From IMG/VR virus record IMGVR_UViG_3300032167_000004, positions 32,001-96,000 of that record: a DNA stretch of 64,000 bases. One strand, 5' to 3'. This DNA is from a virus (taxonomy: Duplodnaviria > Caudoviricetes). The notes beneath the pieces were generated by a model. It was not told where the DNA came from. It made no database searches and worked only from the letters and a program-made list of their open reading frames with translations. Made by a program: the position numbers and the translations under genes. Position 1 is the stretch's first letter. Each line of letters begins with the position of its first letter. Shown piece by piece: positions 3,501 to 56,782 of the stretch.

Positions 3501-6500
3501 TCAGTTTTACCATCAGTACCGATCATTAACTCAGCATTACCTTTAAGATATTCCTGAGTTTTAATATATTCAGCATATTCAGTATCAAAACTCTGTTGAG
3601 CTTTTAATAACGTACTAGCTTTATCTGCATCAGCACCACTAAGTAGTGTGTATAATAAGGTTGCTAACATTTTAACAATATCAGGACCACCTAATGCTAC
3701 AGATATATCAGATCCTAACTGAATAGCCCATCCCCAGCCAAGATTTAATATACCTTTAAGTATAGAAGATGCAGCTCTCATAGTGGGGTTTACATCTTTT
3801 TGTGAGACATTGAACAGATTTGCAGTTTCAGTTGCAGTGAAACCACTTACAACACCATATCCACCTAAAACTAAATCTAATGTATGTCCTGAAGTAATAA
3901 CTGCTGCAGCTTTACCAAAACCTTTAGCTATATCATCTACCCAATTAAGAAGTTTAGATGGAGTTTTTACTATCGTTTTAAATGCTTTACCGATAGTATT
4001 CACAACAGTATTACTTGCAATTTTTGGGAATTTCTTCTTTAAAGCATTAGCAATTGCTTCCACAGCTTCATCTAAGAAATTAGCAAATCGTTTAATAATA
4101 CTTAAATTATCATCATTTGCTAAATATTTAGCTTTATAGTCGGTAGCATCATTACCTTTACCTGTTAAAGTTTTTATAACACCTTTAACTGACCTGTCCT
4201 CAAAATTACCAGCTTTACCTGTAATTAAACTACCAACAGCTTTTGTTGTACCTATTATAGACTTAGTAGAATTAATAGCAGTTTTACCAGCATTTATAGC
4301 ACTGGCACCAATACGTATACCACCAACAGTAGCAGCTTCAACAGCATCACTATTTACTTGAATATCACTAGTGGCATCAGTTCTATCACCATTAGTATCT
4401 TGAAGACCTAATATTTCTTTGGCTTTATTTACTATTATAGAACCTGTGCTTTCTCCTTCTTTAGGTTCATAATCTGCACCATGTTCATTATTGGAAGTAC
4501 CACCACCAAATAATGATGCAAATAAATCTTTAACAGATTGAGGAAGTTTCTTAATAAAGTTCATTAATAGAGGAATTAACAATAATAAACCACCAGTAAT
4601 TAAACCTTTTTTACTAAAAATAGAAGACCATACAGAACTGTGTTCTTTTCTGTCTTCATTACCAATCTGTAATAAATTCCTCATTTTATCTAATATACTT
4701 AATTGGTTCTTTTTATCTTCTTCCTCTTTACGCTGTTTTTTATCTTCAGCTTCAGTTTCACCAGTAGTATGGTAATCTAATACAGTACGTTTAAATTCAC
4801 CATTCTTAGTTCCACCATAAGGAATTAAAGTATTATTTTCATCTGATGAAGCAGTATTATTAGAAGTACCGTGTAACATATCACTCATAGAAGGTTGATC
4901 GTCTTCACGTTGTTCTTTATCTTCAGCTTCGCTTTCACCAGTAGTATTATATTTATTGAATTTATTTTTAAACCATTTACCTACAGAACGTGTCCAACTT
5001 TTTCCTTTTAATCTTTCACGTTCAGCTTTTCTTTTTTCTTTTTTAGATTGCTTCTTATTAGGATCATTATTATCAGAACCTTCAGGATCATTTGTAGTTC
5101 CATCAGGATTAATATTTACAGTAGCAGATTCATTATTAGATTTATCACTATCTGTAGAAGTATTATTATTGTTAGTTTTTTCAGGATCGTCAACTTTTAC
5201 ACCTCCACCTTTACCTCTTAAAATATCGAGAATATCATGGAGGAAATCACTAATATTGAAAATGGTTTTATTAACTGCTTTAGTTTCTTTAAATTGGTCT
5301 TTATCCTTGGCAGACATATTTTTATAATCTCTACCATACTTACGTTTCAGATCCTTATCGATTAATTTATCAACATCAATATCAGAATCAGAACCATCAG
5401 TATTATAACCAAAAGCTTTCGCTCTTTCTCTACGACCATCTAAATCATCACGTAATTTTTTAATTCTTTCTTGGTGTTCTTTACGCTTAGCTTCTCTTTC
5501 AGCTTTACGTTGTTCTCTAGCTGCAACTCTATCATCCTGATAAGCAGCACCATCATTACTATGCTTTGCGGCAGATCTTAAAGAACTAAAAGGATTAGCT
5601 AAACTGACTAAATCACCAACAGACTGTAAAAATCCACGATTTTTACCATCTTCACCCATAATATTATTCAGTCTATCAGTATCACGAATACCGTCTGCTT
5701 TATCAGATAAACCTTTAAAGCCTTTAGTTATTAAACCGATACCTTTAAAAGGTAAAGTTACAGCACCAAGTATACCTTTACCAAGTAATTTTATTCCTGA
5801 CCAGATTCCACCAAATAATTTTTTAATTTTATCTTTAGCAAAATCTGTAATATCCATAATAGAACCTCTGAAAGGTTCAATAACTTTATCATTTATAGTC
5901 TGTACAAATTTAGAAGATTTGATATTATCAATAATTTGCTCTCTAACTTTCTCAATACCTTCACGCATATGTTTAGGCATGATGATTTTATCAGCAATAA
6001 AATGAATTAACTTAACTGGAGAAGACAAGACAAATCCAGTAAATTTAGTAATGGTATTAAATGCAGCTTTACCAACATCTCCTACTAAACTAACAACTTT
6101 ATTAAATCCACTCTTAACTCCATCGGCAATATCTTCAAATAAATCTGTAATATGTAATTTATCTAAAACATCTTTTGCAAAACCGACAATTCTATCCTTT
6201 AATCTTTTGATTTCTTCTTTTAAAGGTTCCACAGAATCAATAAAAGGTTCTGCAATATGTTCAGCAAACCAATCCTGTACATTATAAGACCATTCCATAA
6301 CCTGAATCTTAGCAGGTTCTAAAATATTTAATGTAACAGCATTCATCATTTTAGTCAGAATACTCTGTTCTTTTCGATTACCATCCTTATCGAATGATCC
6401 GAAAATAGTATCTGACCATTTACTTGCAGCCATAGTAATACCTGCAGCTGCACCTAATAATGCACCTGATAAAGGACCAAATGCAATACTACCTAATATA

Positions 6501-12741: not shown

Positions 12742-12992
12742 CAATTATATTCATATAGAAGTATTAATTCTATATAGCTAATTTAATAGCTTCTATATAT
12801 TACTATATAGTTTAGACTATATCTTCATCCTTTATTAAAGGAGCTCTCCATTAGTATTCATTTAAATACTTTAGTCGTTGAACCTTACCAATATATAATT
12901 GGTCTTGGCTTCTGATTATCTATAAATAGATTTCCCAGAAATTAAGAGAGATTCATGTAATATATTACTATATTACTCACCCAATTGCTTTT
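12742..12992 (-). ncRNA. Group I intron (ORF-less, 251 nt) in the beta-subunit gene
   Basis: P (AATTTCTGGGAA), Q (AATCAGAAG), R (GTTCAACGACTA), S (AAGATATAGTCTA); P1 TCACCT/GGGTGA with U.G at the splice site; terminal G. Confidence 0.9.
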
Positions 12993-15782
12993 AGGTGACG
13001 ATGACATTCCTATAATACCCATCATTGTAGGATCATAAGAACGTTTGTCTAATGTATATGCTCTATCCAAATTCATACCATTTACACCTTTTGTAGAAAT
13101 AGTACGTAATTTTTCAGATTCATATATAGGATTAAGGGTAGAAAATTCTTCAACAGTATTTGTCATAAGAATTTTCTTAATAATTGCATCTTTAGGGATA
13201 GAAATCTTTGTAGGATTCTTTGCATTTGCAGTTACTCTATAAGCAGCATAAGCATCTGCTAATTCTCTATGAATAATAGCATTAATGATTTCATTAGATC
13301 TTACTCTGTAAAGATTCATATTATTTTCAATGATATAAGAGTTATCTGCTAATAAAGCATTAGCAAAAAGTAATACAGATACAAAATCTGTAGGATAATC
13401 CAAATCATTTAATACTTCTTTAGTGATAGGATCAATCATAAATTCATAGAAAGAATCAAATGCATTAGAAAGATTTCTAGCATGATACATAGCGTCAAAT
13501 AATTCAAGATAAATATCTTTACTATCTAATTCTTCATATTTAAAAGATTTAGTAGGAATTATTTGTAATCCACTCATTAATAATGAATTTTCTAATGGAT
13601 ACATATCAAATACTAAATATCCATCTTCAAACTGAATACTATTTTGTTTATCAGTTAATTTAGGTCTCTTATCTGTGAAGTAATGATTAATATTACCTTT
13701 TTTCATAACAGTTGTTAAGCCTTCACAGTAACCTAAAAGTAAAACTAAAGGTACATCTTTAGCCATGATTGTAGCTCTAGAGAAAATATATTTCTTAGTG
13801 CTAACATTTACATCATCATAAATTTCTTGTAATTTAGGTCCACAAGTTTGGACAATAAAATCAATAAATTCTACACCATTAATCTTTTCATCTTCATATG
13901 TTAAAATAATAGGTTCATTATTACTATAAAAACCTACACACATCTGATCATTAGTTAATGGCTTTCTTAATCTACTCTGAACTATATTCTGATCAAATAT
14001 AAATTCAGCTTTACTACATTTAACGGAAATATAACTTTTTGAAAGTTCATCATACTCTAATGTAGTTTTGTAATTATTGTTTATCTTTGAAGCATCACCA
14101 TTTTGTACCTTGATTCCTAGTACATTGGAAGCGATAGCTTTTTTAAATTTTTCAATTTTGGGTGACATGTTGACACCATGTCGACGGATGAAAATTTTAT
14201 TGTAATTCGAACAAACCTGTACTTCAGATTCACCAGTTTTTACGATAGGTTTCATAAATAACTGCTTAGTAATAATTTTCTTACTACCATTTAAATATAA
14301 GAACTTATCATCAACAAATTTAGGTACATCAAAAGTTAAGTTATGTCTAATTCTATTTTCATCTTCTAATACTACTTTATAAGTATCTTTATAATTTAAT
14401 TCATCACTACTATCTTCAATTTTAATATCTTTAATATATACAGGAATAGATTTATCATTTAATGCTGCTAATACATTCATCGTATCGTGTTGCATTACAT
14501 TATCATTATATTCCTTTTCAAAGTTAGTAAATCTAACATTAGTAACATTAGAATTGGTAGTTGTAACTTTTTTAGATACATCATTTGAAGATAATTTAAT
14601 AGATGATATACTTTTATCATTTATATAATCATCCACAGTTCTATTATTTACTTTGATCTTTTTTTGTTTTTCTCTTAATTCTTGATCTCGTTTAATAGAG
14701 GCTGTAGATTTGCCTGTTTTTTTCTCTCTTATTAAATCGTGCATTGTGCTGAGTAATTCTTCATCTTCATCCAATTTACGATGTAATTTGAGTTCGATTT
14801 TTTCAGGATCTAATTCAGGTTCTTCTTCCTGAATTTTATCTAACTCAGAATCAATTTTTTGATTAACGATCATCTTAATATCGTCATTATCATCTCTTTC
14901 AGTTTCATCATCAATAAATTGATCCGGGTCAACTAAAGGATTATTTGGATCATCAATGGGTAATGTATTTACTCCAGTAAATCCTAATTTATCATTTAAA
15001 TCTTTAGATACAACATCTTTGATATCTTGTCTCTGAATGGCATTATCTAACGCTTCATCATCTTCAAAATTCATTACAGGTGTCAATTTACTTAATTCTC
15101 TTTTAAATATACTAAGATGATTTTGTTCACAAAGAGAAGGATTCATTCTCATAATCATATTCTTAGAATATAAATAGAAATCTATATTACCTAAAGATTT
15201 AAAAATTTCAAAATATTTCCTATAAGATAATAACAAATAGGATACGGGGTTATTTATTTGATTACCATTTTTAAACCAAGACTCTACATCAATAAAAACC
15301 ATTTTAGTTTTATATTGATTAAATTGAGGATTATTGATTAACACTTTTAAATAATCAAAATACAACTCCATCTTAAGTTTAATATTTATATTTTTCAAAT
15401 TATCAAAAAAGATATTATTAAATACTTGTAAATCATAATAAACATTACGATTATTTACCAAATCAAATCTATTAGGTGTTTTAATTAAACTAATTTTCTC
15501 TTTAATATCTTGACTAATATTTTTAGCTTGTTCACGATAATTGACATATACCATTTTATTGTGAATTTTTTGTTTATATATAGGCTCAATAAAGTAAGTA
15601 AGATATTTAGAATTAGTTACTAATAGAGGATGCATGATAAGATTGATAGCATCTTCAGTGTTTAAATTATTACTAAATACAATATTATACATAGATGCTG
15701 CATTTGTATCTCTAGGTAAATAAACTTTTTGTCTATATACTCGTAAGTGAGGTATGTTATTTATAACAATCATAAAATTCAC
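12993..15782 (-). CDS. rpoB: RNA polymerase beta-like subunit, exon 1 (spliced product ~1381 aa)
   Basis: DVPKF..YLNGSKK, SNYNKIFI, GVNGMN..R and YDPTMMG motifs typical of phage beta homologs; late promoter motif at 15818-15829. Confidence 0.85.
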
Positions 15783-31939: not shown

Positions 31940-32048
31940 ACCTCATCCGTAGTATTTTAACTTTTTTTGTAAAATACATATTATTAATATATTAAATTAT
32001 TGTTTTACAGTAGAAAAATCACTCATAAGAGGTAGGTGCTAGAGAATT

Positions 32049-44861: not shown

Positions 44862-44937
44862 GGGTCCATAGCTCAGTTGGTAGAGCAACGCCCTTTTAAG
44901 GCGTGGGTCAGCAGTTCGAGCCTGCTTGGACTCACCA
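44862..44937 (+). tRNA. tRNA-Lys(TTT)
   Basis: Cloverleaf; ACGCC-CT TTT AA-GGCGT; encoded CCA. Confidence 0.95.
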
Positions 44938-45013: not shown

Positions 45014-45823
45014 ATGCTAAATATTGTTATTAATACACCTACAGACAGAGGTATATATACTGATATATATGCTATTGATGAAAGAGATAAATACTATCAT
45101 CAATTATATCATGCAAGATGTAAGGTATGTGGAACTGAAATAAAAAGTCGTTTAATAGATATTAATCGTAAAAATTCAGTATGTGTACATAAATATATTA
45201 AAACATTTATACGAGATTATCGTATAAATAAAATATTTCAAGGAATGAAACGTAGATGCTATGATAAACACGATAAAGCTTATAGAATGTATGGTGCTAA
45301 AGGAATAACAATTTGTGATGAATGGTTATATACTCCATATAAATTTGAAGAATGGTCGTTACAAAATGGATATCAAGATGATTTAACAATAGACAGAATA
45401 GATTCATCAAAAGGATATTCACCAGATAATTGCAGATGGATTGACTCTGAAACTAATTCTAAATATAAAAAATCCACTAAAGTATTATATGTTAATGGTA
45501 TGGGATTAAGTATGAGGGATTGGTCTAAAGTTATGGGACATGCCAATCATTATATATCAAAATATAATAAAAAACATGGTGAAAAAGCTACTATTCATTT
45601 GATTAGAAAATATATAAGACAACATAAATCATCTTCTGAAAGAATGTTAATGCAATTACATCCTTTTATTCTTAATGAAAAAGATAAATATTATAATATT
45701 GATATAAATCATCCTAGTATTGAAACTGAAACTACTCTTGATAAAATTACTGATTATATTAAGAATAATAAAGTTCCTGTAGATGAGAATGGTTATTATA
45801 ATATTAATATTAAAGTGAATTGA
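45014..45823 (+). CDS. Free-standing HNH endonuclease in the tRNA region
   Basis: MKRRC...YGAKGITICDEW...LTIDRIDSSKGYSPDNCRW. Confidence 0.85.
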   Translation: MLNIVINTPTDRGIYTDIYAIDERDKYYHQLYHARCKVCGTEIKSRLIDINRKNSVCVHKYIKTFIRDYRINKIFQGMKRRCYDKHDKAYRMYGAKGITICDEWLYTPYKFEEWSLQNGYQDDLTIDRIDSSKGYSPDNCRWIDSETNSKYKKSTKVLYVNGMGLSMRDWSKVMGHANHYISKYNKKHGEKATIHLIRKYIRQHKSSSERMLMQLHPFILNEKDKYYNIDINHPSIETETTLDKITDYIKNNKVPVDENGYYNINIKVN

Positions 45824-46377: not shown

Positions 46378-46454
46378 GGGCCTGTAGTTCAGTTGGTTAG
46401 AACCCTTGGCTCATAACCGAGTTGTCGCGAGTTCGAAGCTTGCCAGGCCTACCA
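46378..46454 (+). tRNA. tRNA with CAT anticodon (likely Ile2/lysidine type, otherwise elongator Met)
   Basis: GGGCCTG acceptor; CTTGG-CT CAT AA-CCGAG; encoded CCA; lacks the initiator C1 mismatch and GGG/CCC stem. Confidence 0.9.
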
Positions 46455-52064: not shown

Positions 52065-52214
52065 TATACTTTTATAAAAATAAAGAGGGATTTATTTCCC
52101 TCTTTATTTTTTTATCTTTTTTTATAAGTATATATTATATTTATATGAACGGAATTTAAGATATAATTTTCGTTTTAACAGCATTATAATGGATACAACT
52201 AGAGGAGGATTAAT

Positions 52215-52427: not shown

Positions 52428-53047
52428 ATGAGCAAAAATAATAATACAGGTGTCCAATTAGAGAAACTTAATTGGGATAAAGAATGTGAATTAGATCTTA
52501 TGTTAGGTCGAGGATTCATTGTTTCTGAACCTGCAATTACTGGTAAAGACACTAAGTCTATGTATGGTATCCAATCACCTCTGTTTGCATCTGATTGGTC
52601 AGATGGAGAAGATGCATTCGCTGACCGTTTTAAATGTGCATGTGGTGCTATGAAAGGTAAAATTTTCGAAGGAGAAATTTGTCCTGAATGTAAAACTAAG
52701 ATTGAGTTTAGGGATGTCGATCTTAGCTATACCGGCTGGATAGTCATTAATAATCATAAGATTATTCAACCTATTTATTATAATAAATTAGCATCTATTA
52801 TTGGTAATAAAACTTTTAATGAAATTATTAAATATGATAAGTTTATCGATAGAGATGGACATGTACAAGAAAAGACAACAGATAGTAATCCTTTTAGAGG
52901 AATTGGATTGATTGAATTTAGAGAAAGATTCCAAGAGATATTGGATTATTATAAAGTAAAGAAAAAGAATAAATGGGAAGAAATCAGAGAGATTGAAGAA
53001 GATAAAGATAAAGTATTTACTTCATGTATTCCTGTGTTCAGTTCCGT
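52428..53047 (+). CDS. rpoC: RNA polymerase beta' N-terminal-half subunit (probably non-virion RNAP), exon 1 of 5; spliced ~481 aa
   Basis: Zn-binding CACG...CPEC, TGWI...IIQP, IPVFSS; exons join in frame: 52428-53047, 54316-54585, 54837-54858, 55090-55147, 56307-56782. Confidence 0.9.
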
Positions 53048-54315
53048 AAATCTTTAATGCGGCTATATAAAGTGATTTATATAGTGAACTCTTTTAATTG
53101 CTGGGAACTCTAGAAATAGACAATCAGCAGCCAACCCTATAAATTGCATAATAATTAATTTAAAGAAGGTGTTTTAAATACTTTTTGAACGTATAGTTGA
53201 AATATTTTTACCATTTTATTACGAAGGTAAAAAGACAATATATCTTGTCAGTGATGCTGGTAGAATTATGAATGGTAAAAGTGGTAGAATATTAAAAACT
53301 CGTATAGAGAAAGATTATGAACGTGTTGGTTTATCACTTAATGGTGTAGATAAAGATTTTTCTGTACATCGTTTAGTGGCAATGGTATTTATTCCTAACC
53401 CTGAAAATAAACCAACAGTAAATCATATTAATATTCATAATTTAAGTGCTGCAGAAAATAAACAAGATAATTGTATTGAAAATCTCGAATGGGCAACATA
53501 TCCAGAACAAGCTGAACATGCTCTGAGAACTAAATTACGAGAACCATTACGAGGTGAAGATAATCCTGCAGCAAAATTAACTGAAGAAGATGTTAAAAAT
53601 ATATCAATGATATTTACAATGAATGAATTAACTATTTCAGAAATAGCAACTCTATTTAAAGTAGATTATGAAACAATACGTGATATATATTGTGGTAATA
53701 CATGGAGACATATTACATGTGACTATGATTTCAGTAATTATACTAAATTAGGTTGTGAAATATATACTGATGAACAAATTCATCATGTATGTAGATTTCT
53801 GGAAGAAAATAAATTACTGGTTTCAGAAATATCTAAAGAAACAGGTGTTGATGAATTCAATATTAGACATATTATAAGGAAAGATTCATGGTTACGAATT
53901 TCTAATAATTATAATATATCTAATTATGATAAAATTAGACCTGTTACAAAAAACACTGAAGAACAAATTCATCATGTGTGTAAATTATTAGAAGAAAATA
54001 AATTAACATTACATGAGATTTCTGATATAACTAGTGTAAAATATAAAGTAGTTAATGCCATTCTTAACGGTAAAAATTGGAAACATATCTCTTCACTATA
54101 TAATATCAACTATACCGCATTTGAGATTAAAAAATAAAAAAAATAATTATGCATTTTATAGGAAGGTTCAACGACTATTAAGTACATCCTAATGTAGATG
54201 GAAATGGAGAGCATCTTTAATAATAAGATGAAGATATAGTCTAGTCTTTATAGAAATATAAAGAAGTTCTATATAGAGAACTGTATAAGAGTAACGATCT
54301 TATATGAATATAACA
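53048..54315 (+). mobile_element. Group I intron 1 (1268 nt) carrying an HNH homing endonuclease
   Basis: P/Q at ~53096-53131, R GTTCAACGACTA, S AAGATATAGTCTA; P1 CCGT/GCGG; P10 TTAAT/ATTAA. Confidence 0.88.
53178..54137 (+). CDS. Intron-encoded NUMOD4-HNH homing endonuclease with three C-terminal HTH-like repeats
   Basis: VHRLVA...PTVNH...N...NLEW; frame open back to ATA at 53178 behind AAGGTG (ORF track starts at 53268). Confidence 0.85.
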   Translation: MLFERIVEIFLPFYYEGKKTIYLVSDAGRIMNGKSGRILKTRIEKDYERVGLSLNGVDKDFSVHRLVAMVFIPNPENKPTVNHINIHNLSAAENKQDNCIENLEWATYPEQAEHALRTKLREPLRGEDNPAAKLTEEDVKNISMIFTMNELTISEIATLFKVDYETIRDIYCGNTWRHITCDYDFSNYTKLGCEIYTDEQIHHVCRFLEENKLLVSEISKETGVDEFNIRHIIRKDSWLRISNNYNISNYDKIRPVTKNTEEQIHHVCKLLEENKLTLHEISDITSVKYKVVNAILNGKNWKHISSLYNINYTAFEIKK

Positions 54316-54585
54316 ATTAAGACCAGTGTCGTTCAGAAATGATAGTTTCTTTTATTCGACGATTGATAAGAAATACAATAGTATATTCTCGTCTGCACGT
54401 CTGTTAAATGATACAGACTTGTATGAAAAGAGAAGAAAGAAATGGACAAAGGAAAAAAGAGAAAGAATGGACATTGCTACTATTCTTTCAACAATTCAGG
54501 AAAAATTAATGCAGTTATGGGAATTAGTATTCGACCTTATAAACCAGAAGGATGGATTCATAAAATCGGAGATACTCGGTGGAAT
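54316..54585 (+). CDS. rpoC: beta' N-half exon 2
   Basis: (V)LRPVSF...KDGFIKSEILGG. Confidence 0.85.
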
Positions 54586-54836
54586 AAAACTAATTGTTCC
54601 TATACATAGTAATATGTATATAAAACTTTCTTAATTGCTGGGACATCATATATGGACAATCAGCAGCCAAGACTATCTAAAAAGATAGTAAGGTTCAACG
54701 ACTATTAGATTCAAGTGAATCATAATGGAAAGCTCCTTTTAATAAAAGGATGAAGATATAGTCTAATCTTTATAGTAATATAAAGCTGTTATTAAATTAA
54801 CGATATAAGAGTAATGAACTTATATGAATATTATTG
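54586..54836 (+). ncRNA. Group I intron 2 (251 nt, ORF-less)
   Basis: P/Q/R/S motifs; P1 GGAAT/GTTCC; P10 TAATT/GATTA; terminal G. Confidence 0.9.
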
Positions 54837-54858
54837 GATTAATTTCTCTAGCCGTTGT
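54837..54858 (+). CDS. rpoC: beta' N-half exon 3 (22-nt micro-exon)
   Basis: Encodes (M)INFSSRC of the conserved G..(N/D)FS.R.VI.PDP motif. Confidence 0.85.
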
Positions 54859-55089
54859 AAAAATAATGCAACGTAACTCTTTTAATTGCTGGAAAGTCTA
54901 GAAATAGATAATCAGCATCCAAGACTATCTAAAAAAGATAGTAAGGTTCAACGACTATTAGATTCAAGTGAATCATAATGGAGAGCAACTTATTATAATA
55001 AGTTGAAGATATAGTCTAATCTTTATAGTAATATAAAGCTGTTATTAAATTAACGATATAAGAGTAATGAACTTATATGAATATTATTG
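54859..55089 (+). ncRNA. Group I intron 3 (231 nt, ORF-less)
   Basis: P/Q/R/S motifs; P1 CGTTGT/GCAACG; P10 ATAAT/GTTAT; terminal G. Confidence 0.9.
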
Positions 55090-55147
55090 GTTATTATTCC
55101 TGATCCTGAATTGAAAGCAGATGAAGTAAAACTTAACTATATGGCAT
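55090..55147 (+). CDS. rpoC: beta' N-half exon 4 (58 nt)
   Basis: VIIPDPELKADEVKLNYMA. Confidence 0.85.
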
Positions 55148-56306
55148 TAAATTAAAAGTGTCCTCATATAGTAATATATGATGTAAAAACTTTCTTAATT
55201 GCTGGGAAATCCTATACGGACAATCAGCAGCGAATACTCTTTATAAAAAAATATAAAAAGGAGATACAGTATGAAATACGAATTTACGATAAAACCTATA
55301 GAAGGAGAAACCTATACTATATTAAAAGATATTGATGGTAATGATACTGAATTTTTAATTAGTAAAAATGGTTATATTACACCTTCTAATACTATCATTG
55401 TTGAAATATGGAAACCTATTTTTATAAATGGTGAAAAAACTCATTATTTGATCAGTGACTATGGTAGAATCAAAAATTCAAAAAAGAATAAAATACTTAA
55501 ACCTAAAACAAATGCATATTGGGGATATAAACAAGTTGATTTATCTATACATAATGTAAAGTATCAGTGTAAAGTTCATAGATTAGTAGCAGAAGCTTTT
55601 ATTCATAATCCTGGAAATAAAAAGACTGTAGACCATATAATTGTAACTTCTCCAAGTGAGATTGGTAAAGCTATTAATACAGTATTTAATTTACGATGGG
55701 CTACTCAAGAAGAACAAGCTAAATATGCTATTTCGTCTGGAGCTAGACATGGTGTTAAAGGATCTAAAAATCATCTTGCTAAAATGGATGAATTAATGGC
55801 ACATGCAATTTGCAAAGAAATTGTAAAATATGAGTTATCTATTATTGAGATTAGTAAAAAATTAAATATTCCGTCGCATACTATAACAGATATTTTAGAT
55901 AAAAGATCTTGGATACATATATCATCAAATTATGATATTGATAGATCTAGAATACCTTCTAGTAGAAGAGGATTAGACAAAGAAGATTTATTTAAAATAT
56001 TTAAGTTGCGAGATGATGGATATACTTATAAATATATTGCTGATCAGATTGATAATAAGATAACATCAGGTGCTATAAGAGATATGATGAATCGACCCGG
56101 TAGTTATAAAAAAGAAAAAGAAGAATATGCATTATTATATAAAAATAATAAAGAGTAACGTTCAACGACTAATATATCTGTGTAAGATAGTAATAGAAAG
56201 TATCCTATTCATCAAATAGGATAATGATATAGTCTAATCTTTATAGTAATATAAAGCAGTTATTAAAATAACGGTGTAAGATTAACAATCTTATATGAAT
56301 AAAATG
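55148..56306 (+). mobile_element. Group I intron 4 (1159 nt) carrying an HNH homing endonuclease
   Basis: P/Q, R GTTCAACGACTA, S ATGATATAGTCTA; P1 GGCAT/GTGTC; terminal G. Confidence 0.88.
55271..56158 (+). CDS. Intron-encoded NUMOD4-HNH homing endonuclease
   Basis: EIWKPI...YLISDYGRI, VHRLVA...TVDH...NLRW; AAGGAG SD. Confidence 0.88.
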   Translation: MKYEFTIKPIEGETYTILKDIDGNDTEFLISKNGYITPSNTIIVEIWKPIFINGEKTHYLISDYGRIKNSKKNKILKPKTNAYWGYKQVDLSIHNVKYQCKVHRLVAEAFIHNPGNKKTVDHIIVTSPSEIGKAINTVFNLRWATQEEQAKYAISSGARHGVKGSKNHLAKMDELMAHAICKEIVKYELSIIEISKKLNIPSHTITDILDKRSWIHISSNYDIDRSRIPSSRRGLDKEDLFKIFKLRDDGYTYKYIADQIDNKITSGAIRDMMNRPGSYKKEKEEYALLYKNNKE

Positions 56307-56782
56307 TTTTGGAACTTTATAAGTACGAGATAATCGCATATCTCGTTAAGATGGCAGGTATTACTGAAAATGAAGCCTATGAAGCTTGGTTTAAAGCCCG
56401 TATAGTTTATAATCCTAAAATTTATGAAGTAATGAATTTTATTCTTAAGAAAAGAAAGCCTAAGATCCTGATTAATCGTAACCCCACGATTAATTATGGG
56501 TCCTTGCTTTGTGTTAAGATTAAATCTATTAAGAACGAGTTTTCTGAAGATTACACGATGAGTATGCCACTGCAGATTTTAAGTGTACTGAACGCTGACT
56601 TCGACGGAGATATTCTGAATATTATTAGTCTGAAAACAAAAGCTTTAGAAAAAGAATATAATAAGATTTTTAATCCTAGATTAAATCTCTTTGTTAGTAG
56701 AAATGATGGCATGTTCAATAGTGATGTATCTTTGTTTAAAGATGAAATTATTGGATTGTGGTCCTTTAATAATATTGAATAA
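56307..56782 (+). CDS. rpoC: beta' N-half exon 5 containing the catalytic motif
   Basis: INRNPTI and NADFDGD. Confidence 0.92.

Follow-up and report, generated by a model that had tools for sequence, protein, structure and literature searches.

Group I introns accumulating in a single phage gene have already been described: published examples hold two or three introns, with short exons and cases of exon skipping (PMC11878797), and intron-split RNA polymerase (RNAP) genes are called frequent in MarsHill-like phages (10.1101/2020.12.14.422802). In phage AR9, the gene for the N-terminal part of the RNAP beta' subunit (beta'N; NC_031039, BI022_gp269; PDB 7S00/7S01 chain d) follows an early promoter, is split by an intron bearing an HNH/NUMOD4 gene, and ends soon after the catalytic motif. 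We analysed its homologue at positions 52428–56782 of a 64,000-nucleotide (nt) stretch, hereafter the window, which covers positions 32,001 to 96,000 of the 263,786-bp virus record IMGVR_UViG_3300032167_000004 (Duplodnaviria; Caudoviricetes). Four group I introns interrupt this gene, and the first of them ends in A in place of the usual G. Such an ending is known from the hexacoral mitochondrial intron ND5-717, whose exons are ligated exactly in vivo, though less efficiently than those of its G-ending neighbour (PMC6545197, PMC8146996).

The five exons lie on the plus strand, like all other features below unless indicated, at 52428..53047 (620 nt), 54316..54585 (270 nt), 54837..54858 (a micro-exon of 22 nt), 55090..55147 (58 nt) and 56307..56782 (476 nt). 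They sum to 1446 nt, an open frame of 481 codons plus stop that restores the four motifs named in the first-pass annotation of this locus, exactly as it had been assembled there. Over 473 residues the joined product and the intron-less homologue P0001 align with 76.3% identity and zero gaps, and the closest homologues are collinear with the product at all four junctions. Exon 1 holds the N-terminal part of beta' with its Cys cluster (phrog_2987, E-value 1.8e-15), the invariant Leu-Arg pair in the LRP motif opens exon 2, and exon 5 contains the catalytic motif NADFDGD—uninterrupted at 56591–56611—and matches PF00623 above cut-off. Automatic gene calls give only fragments of this split gene, as had been anticipated.

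Among solved structures, the best matches of exons 1 and 5 are the AR9 RNAP beta' chains (7S01_d, E-values 2.9e-10 and 2.3e-28 respectively), phiKZ gp55 coming next; this comparison, initially suggested as a check, bears out the proposed identity of a catalytic beta' subunit. Membership in beta'N is indicated by homology over the whole subunit and by the DxDGD catalytic motif, both present. The choice of the non-virion rather than the virion paralogue relies on the annotation of these best solved matches, all non-virion, the AR9 homologue being annotated as the non-virion beta' N-terminus. Since, among solved structures, the AR9 non-virion beta' gives the best match, we assign the gene by homology to the non-virion RNAP of an AR9-like jumbo phage, as its catalytic beta' subunit, N-terminal part. 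It is single-copy in the genome, the sole other match being a 24.8% paralogue at about 11.6–13.5 kb of G000, and its exons are under purifying selection: the ratio of nonsynonymous to synonymous substitution rates (dN/dS) is 0.03–0.08 against relatives.

The four introns extend over 53048..54315 (1268 nt; guide G at 53059, terminal nucleotide, or omega, an A at 54315), 54586..54836 (251 nt), 54859..55089 (231 nt) and 55148..56306 (1159 nt). Introns 2 and 3 contain no open reading frame (ORF), and introns 2, 3 and 4 end in G. Each of the four displays the core elements P, Q, R and S in order, and their P7 strands, which include the G-C guanosine site, are identical. The general group I model of Rfam, RF00028 (cut-off 50 bits), gives 84.6 bits for intron 2 and 83.7 bits for intron 3; introns 1 and 4, each interrupted by an ORF, score below cut-off as separate halves (22.6–36 bits). 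The assignment to group I made in the first-pass annotation, which had named group I models as a means of control, thus holds for the four introns by their core elements and for introns 2 and 3 by their scores as well. In the RF00028 alignments, where P7.1, the additional hairpin of subgroup IA between P7 and P3, was sought with the general model only, a single hairpin is inserted after R. A P2 hairpin is present in introns 1, 2 and 4 and missing from intron 3, both in the window (54859–54885) and in the related locus L267 (5393–5420).

The junctions are defined by pairing as well as by the protein. A P1 helix with its U.G pair, likewise predicted at every junction, comprises 4, 5, 6 and 5 bp in introns 1 to 4, and a P10 directly adjoining P1 comprises 6, 5, 6 and 6 bp. 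P9.0, as read from the alignment, pairs GU with AC in intron 1, and AU with AU or UU in introns 2–4. A blind search using P1, P10 and the protein match alone recovered the same four boundaries. The other joint shifts of splice sites that keep a U at the 5' site and a G at the 3' site were all enumerated, and each alters or deletes invariant residues. No P10 pairing across non-cognate exons is as strong as the cognate pairings; the strongest, between intron 1 and exon 4, reaches 4 bp and shifts the frame. The insertion points are fixed independently, because strains without one or more of these introns exist as DNA: intron 4 is absent from X10 and X12, introns 1–3 are absent from L261, and L267 retains intron 3 only. 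Across the intron 4 junction X10 displays three synonymous differences.

The first-pass annotation, in its account of the split gene, did not mention that intron 1 ends in A. Only with A54315 as the last base of this intron is Ser-Val-Leu-Arg-Pro restored. An in-frame G next occurs 6 nt downstream, at 54321, and its use would delete L208 and R209, two residues invariant in 56 of 56 homologues, the Leu-Arg being also present in AR9. Independently of the protein match, the anatomy of P10 designates the same 3' end: 6 bp form at 54315, while every other site between 54305 and 54328 allows 2 bp at best. At site 206, where intron 1 is inserted, there is no G register that preserves the protein. Among related introns sharing the P9.0 strand, whose ends were read by position and not by splicing, 17 of 23 terminate in AC-G, and in five a G follows the same 13 nt. 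Sibling introns that end in G show about 77–80% identity in the core.

This A is inherited. It is found identical in nine other assemblies and in run X6, which may represent one population, and it is seen across ENA, JGI and Logan assemblies. More significantly, it is shared by L266, a diverged strain from another sample (88% exon identity, dN/dS 0.065), whose intron at the same site (5621–5880) is 260 nt long, devoid of ORF, and differs by 8 substitutions in the core. There the 6-bp P10 survives the replacement of an A-U pair by G.U in the recoded exon. The remaining 20 complete introns mapped in the beta'N gene all end in G, against these two ending in A, a 20-to-2 tally leaning slightly to G since ambiguous splice registers in relatives were settled by the U/G convention. 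We regard intron 1, on its sequence, as a variant member of group I, as ND5-717 is.

We propose that the ribozyme of each intron would excise it, guided by that intron's P1 and P10 and in no obligatory order. Following established group I chemistry, free guanosine would first attack each 5' site, including that of intron 1, whose guanosine site in P7 is unchanged; the freed exon would then attack the 3' site, which P10 and P9.0 keep in place. The A of intron 1 would either occupy or bypass the guanosine site, and ligation would take place after it, the 3' site being set by the 6-bp P10 stacked on P1 together with P9.0. For the chemistry and the rate of this step we infer a ligation probably slower than that of a G-ending intron. 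Beside the observed boundaries, pairings, terminal A with its inheritance, and selection on the exons, stands the reading that all four introns are accurately spliced, which we consider likely. Since the diverged strain L266 shares the terminal A, it is probable that an essential enzyme relies on a splice of non-standard type.

Several points weigh against this interpretation. Splicing is deduced from DNA and not from spliced RNA. The runs listed as holding this DNA are animal feces and gut metagenomes, with no RNA run among them, which has no bearing on expression. A change in the P7 guanosine site of intron 1 that would compensate for the A was looked for and none was seen. The A is scored in two strains only, as the more distant copies of L012 and L013 break off before the intron's 3' end, and the conservation of the exons could be partly older than the terminal A. 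The contigs of X10 and X12 stop short of covering 54315. In search of further introns at site 206, pattern scans of viral and genome contigs gave chance matches only, and no such intron emerged when metagenome contigs were scanned at the protein level. Outside the beta'N gene, a related HNH-carrying group I intron lies in a UvsX/RecA-like gene (L094:1766-2780, minus strand, the same sequence occurring in L101); it also appears to end in A, with a P1 of 6 bp, a P10 of 4 bp at the A only, and nearby G registers that shift the frame.

A compatible extension of accurate splicing would be that the terminal A has been selected, slowing ligation or blocking 3' hydrolysis so that the non-virion polymerase, and with it the switch to late transcription, becomes rate-limited. 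The A indeed persists in two strains, even as the endonuclease gene was gained or lost; coral ND5-717, less efficient, has been proposed to gain protection against hydrolysis (PMC6545197, PMC8146996); and the gene sits behind a motif resembling an early promoter. On the other hand very close relatives live without intron 1 (L261, with 97% protein identity, and L267), which argues that such a brake is not needed, and the cores of the two A-ending introns differ by only 8 substitutions, so that the sharing is explained by one mobile intron having spread recently. We therefore hold this selection for unlikely. Its fuller form, a mobile phage intron lineage with a heritable terminal A and an unchanged guanosine site, in which slow ligation at A was selected as a timer of late RNAP, seems to us slightly less likely again.

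The motif in question (52126..52138, with the core TATATATTAT at 52129) is a putative early promoter of the virion RNAP. The core occurs in 66 copies in the genome and resembles the AR9 early consensus (PMC5312081), but has an A instead of a G at the AR9 start position.

Intron 1 might also be simply defective and ligate mainly at G54321, a subunit lacking Leu-Arg being tolerated or rare correct events being sufficient. The near-universality of the terminal G speaks for this, as does the presence, in both the window and L266, of an in-frame G 6 nt past the A; the endonuclease gene of intron 1 looks attenuated too, with no ATG at the start of NUMOD4. Yet P10 at 54321 is reduced to 1 bp, and this G, as second base of the Arg codon, is conserved for the protein. 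Leu-Arg is invariant, AR9 included, and the phage is present in many assemblies. Such a defect is thus quite improbable, and accurate ligation after A54315 remains our preferred reading.

The density of introns, which the first-pass annotation had qualified as unusual, proved ordinary for this gene, because relatives hold up to five introns in it. Rebuilding ten beta'N loci into open frames disclosed 13 distinct occupied sites. Five introns occur in L011 (exons of 659, 244, 237, 85, 29 and 236 nt) and four in L009; L004 contains two, and L266 no fewer than three, along with a micro-exon of 28 nt. Many database proteins terminate at intron sites of beta'N. In L004 (7886-8906), L009 (8008-9080) and L011 (8342-8664) an intron lies inside the catalytic motif, with GIY-YIG instead of HNH in L004 and L009. 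We take the conserved motifs of the beta'N gene to be a hotspot that attracts mobile group I introns, four of them in this strain.

It had also been suggested that the 22-nt micro-exon, serving both introns 2 and 3, imposes on them an order of splicing that gates polymerase synthesis. This short exon is indeed placed between two ribozymes with identical last 86 nt, phages Twort and SIOphi are documented cases of exon skipping (PMC11878797), and tertiary crowding or some skipping at the micro-exon is conceivable from the sequence. Nevertheless the P10 of intron 2 uses nt 1–5 of exon 3 and the P1 of intron 3 nt 17–22: the two do not overlap and both helices can form together. Skipping of exon 3 would leave a P10 of 1 bp and a frameshift. 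Moreover micro-exons of 28 and 29 nt exist in relatives at other pairs of sites while close relatives do not have the 22-nt one, a pattern that independent insertions would produce. Nothing in the arrangement suggests a regulatory design. Gating by the micro-exon, which the separation of the two helices leaves unsupported, has to our mind little chance of being correct. Finally, an error of assembly or sequencing behind the terminal A or the intron array, conceivable if the identical assemblies came from one sampling campaign, is refuted by L266 and practically without likelihood, the same base being read in the assemblies of three sources.

The shared end of introns 2 and 3 (86 identical nt, at 54751–54836 and 55004–55089) suggests a recent gene conversion or a common origin. 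Recombination between these two copies would remove the micro-exon.

The ORFs of introns 1 and 4 are both inserted between Q and R. In intron 1 an HNH/NUMOD4 endonuclease frame occupies 53178..54137 (phrog_59, E-value 2.7e-43) and opens with ATA at 53178; the first ATG, at 53268, falls within the NUMOD4 region, so that this domain, mostly upstream of that ATG, is detected on the extended frame only. In the sequence at 53163–53270 a site resembling a ribosome-binding site is followed by ATA instead of ATG, and the orthologue in L012 has an ATG near the point equivalent to 53178. The gene of intron 1 may thus be attenuated. The ORF of intron 4 (55271..56158) would encode an HNH/NUMOD4 endonuclease of 295 aa (NUMOD4, E-value 7.2e-10; phrog_59, E-value 2.4e-29). 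Neither intron ORF matches the Pfam family HNH_3. We consider both proteins as putative homing endonucleases, the sole and indirect sign of site cleavage being a raised synonymous divergence.

This divergence concerns the codons located four or fewer from known insertion sites, in pairs of intron-less alleles too. Third positions near the sites differ in 50–54% of comparisons against 33–40% elsewhere, and switches between serine codon families reach about 40% against 9–20%, the compared pairs not being independent in either case. First positions of Leu and Arg codons near the sites show no excess of differences. The invariant SSVLRP motif (53035–53047 and 54316–54345) is strongly recoded by synonymous changes among close strains (L261, L267, L004, L008). 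We take this raised synonymous change as a lead; it would fit an escape from homing endonucleases or a co-conversion of flanks.

Other introns and related genes were encountered in the same genome. A fifth group I intron of the window, at about 12745–13000 on the minus strand, has no ORF, ends in G and splits a large RNAP beta gene; further RNAP beta-family genes are present in the window. More group I introns are found in G000:C1 near 161–162 kb, 182 kb, 190.5 kb and 243.7–245.5 kb. Outside the window, at about 13070–13420 of G000:C1, the catalytic motif of the paralogous beta' gene, probably of virion type, is split by a divergent G-ending intron. Two tRNA genes of the window (44862–44934 and 46378–46451) flank a free-standing ORF of HNH type (45014–45823).

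The four-intron layout is then a fresh example of a known pattern, and mainly a lesson for annotation. The useful part is the A-ending intron, located in an essential single-copy gene and existing in L266 in a compact form of 260 nt without ORF: together with G-ending siblings, the L266 intron forms a natural pair for determining how far P10 and P9.0 replace the terminal G. Intron finders that demand a terminal G would mis-splice phage genes, here by an in-frame deletion of two invariant residues. Besides, the map of 13 sites and the raised synonymous change near them provide a setting in which homing conflicts among related jumbo phages can be tested.

How does this gene compare with the systems already described? 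Limited literature searches found no published phage intron ending in A. The intron Cbu.L1917 of the Coxiella burnetii 23S rRNA reportedly ends in A, adjoins a short exon and self-splices more slowly than its G version; it is said to belong, unlike intron 1, to an rRNA gene and to a different intron family. As to AR9 beta'N, its gene contains one intron, which ends in G and sits within the catalytic motif (at site 424 by the numbering of the window), whereas the window gene keeps this motif intact and has four introns at other sites, one of which ends in A. Several group I introns and small internal exons in an essential gene are shared with Twort orf142, which has three introns and exon skipping, and with polymerase, terminase and reductase genes of Bastillevirinae (PMC11878797), as well as with MarsHill-like RNAP genes (10.1101/2020.12.14.422802); in the accessible parts of these sources the published multi-intron genes have two or three introns, against four here, and no A-ending intron is mentioned. 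In the jumbo phage PhiPA3, gp210 (PMC11620839) is likewise encoded by an HNH gene within a group I intron placed at a conserved RNAP motif, but it resides in the single intron of a virion RNAP beta gene and its activity against a competitor was demonstrated, while the HNH proteins of the window are known from sequence. The closest parallel for the terminal A itself is ND5-717 (PMC8146996, PMC6545197), a natural A-ending group I intron, also in an essential gene. The coral intron, however, is obligatory, vertically inherited and carries genes in P8, whereas the phage intron is optional and exists with or without its HNH gene.

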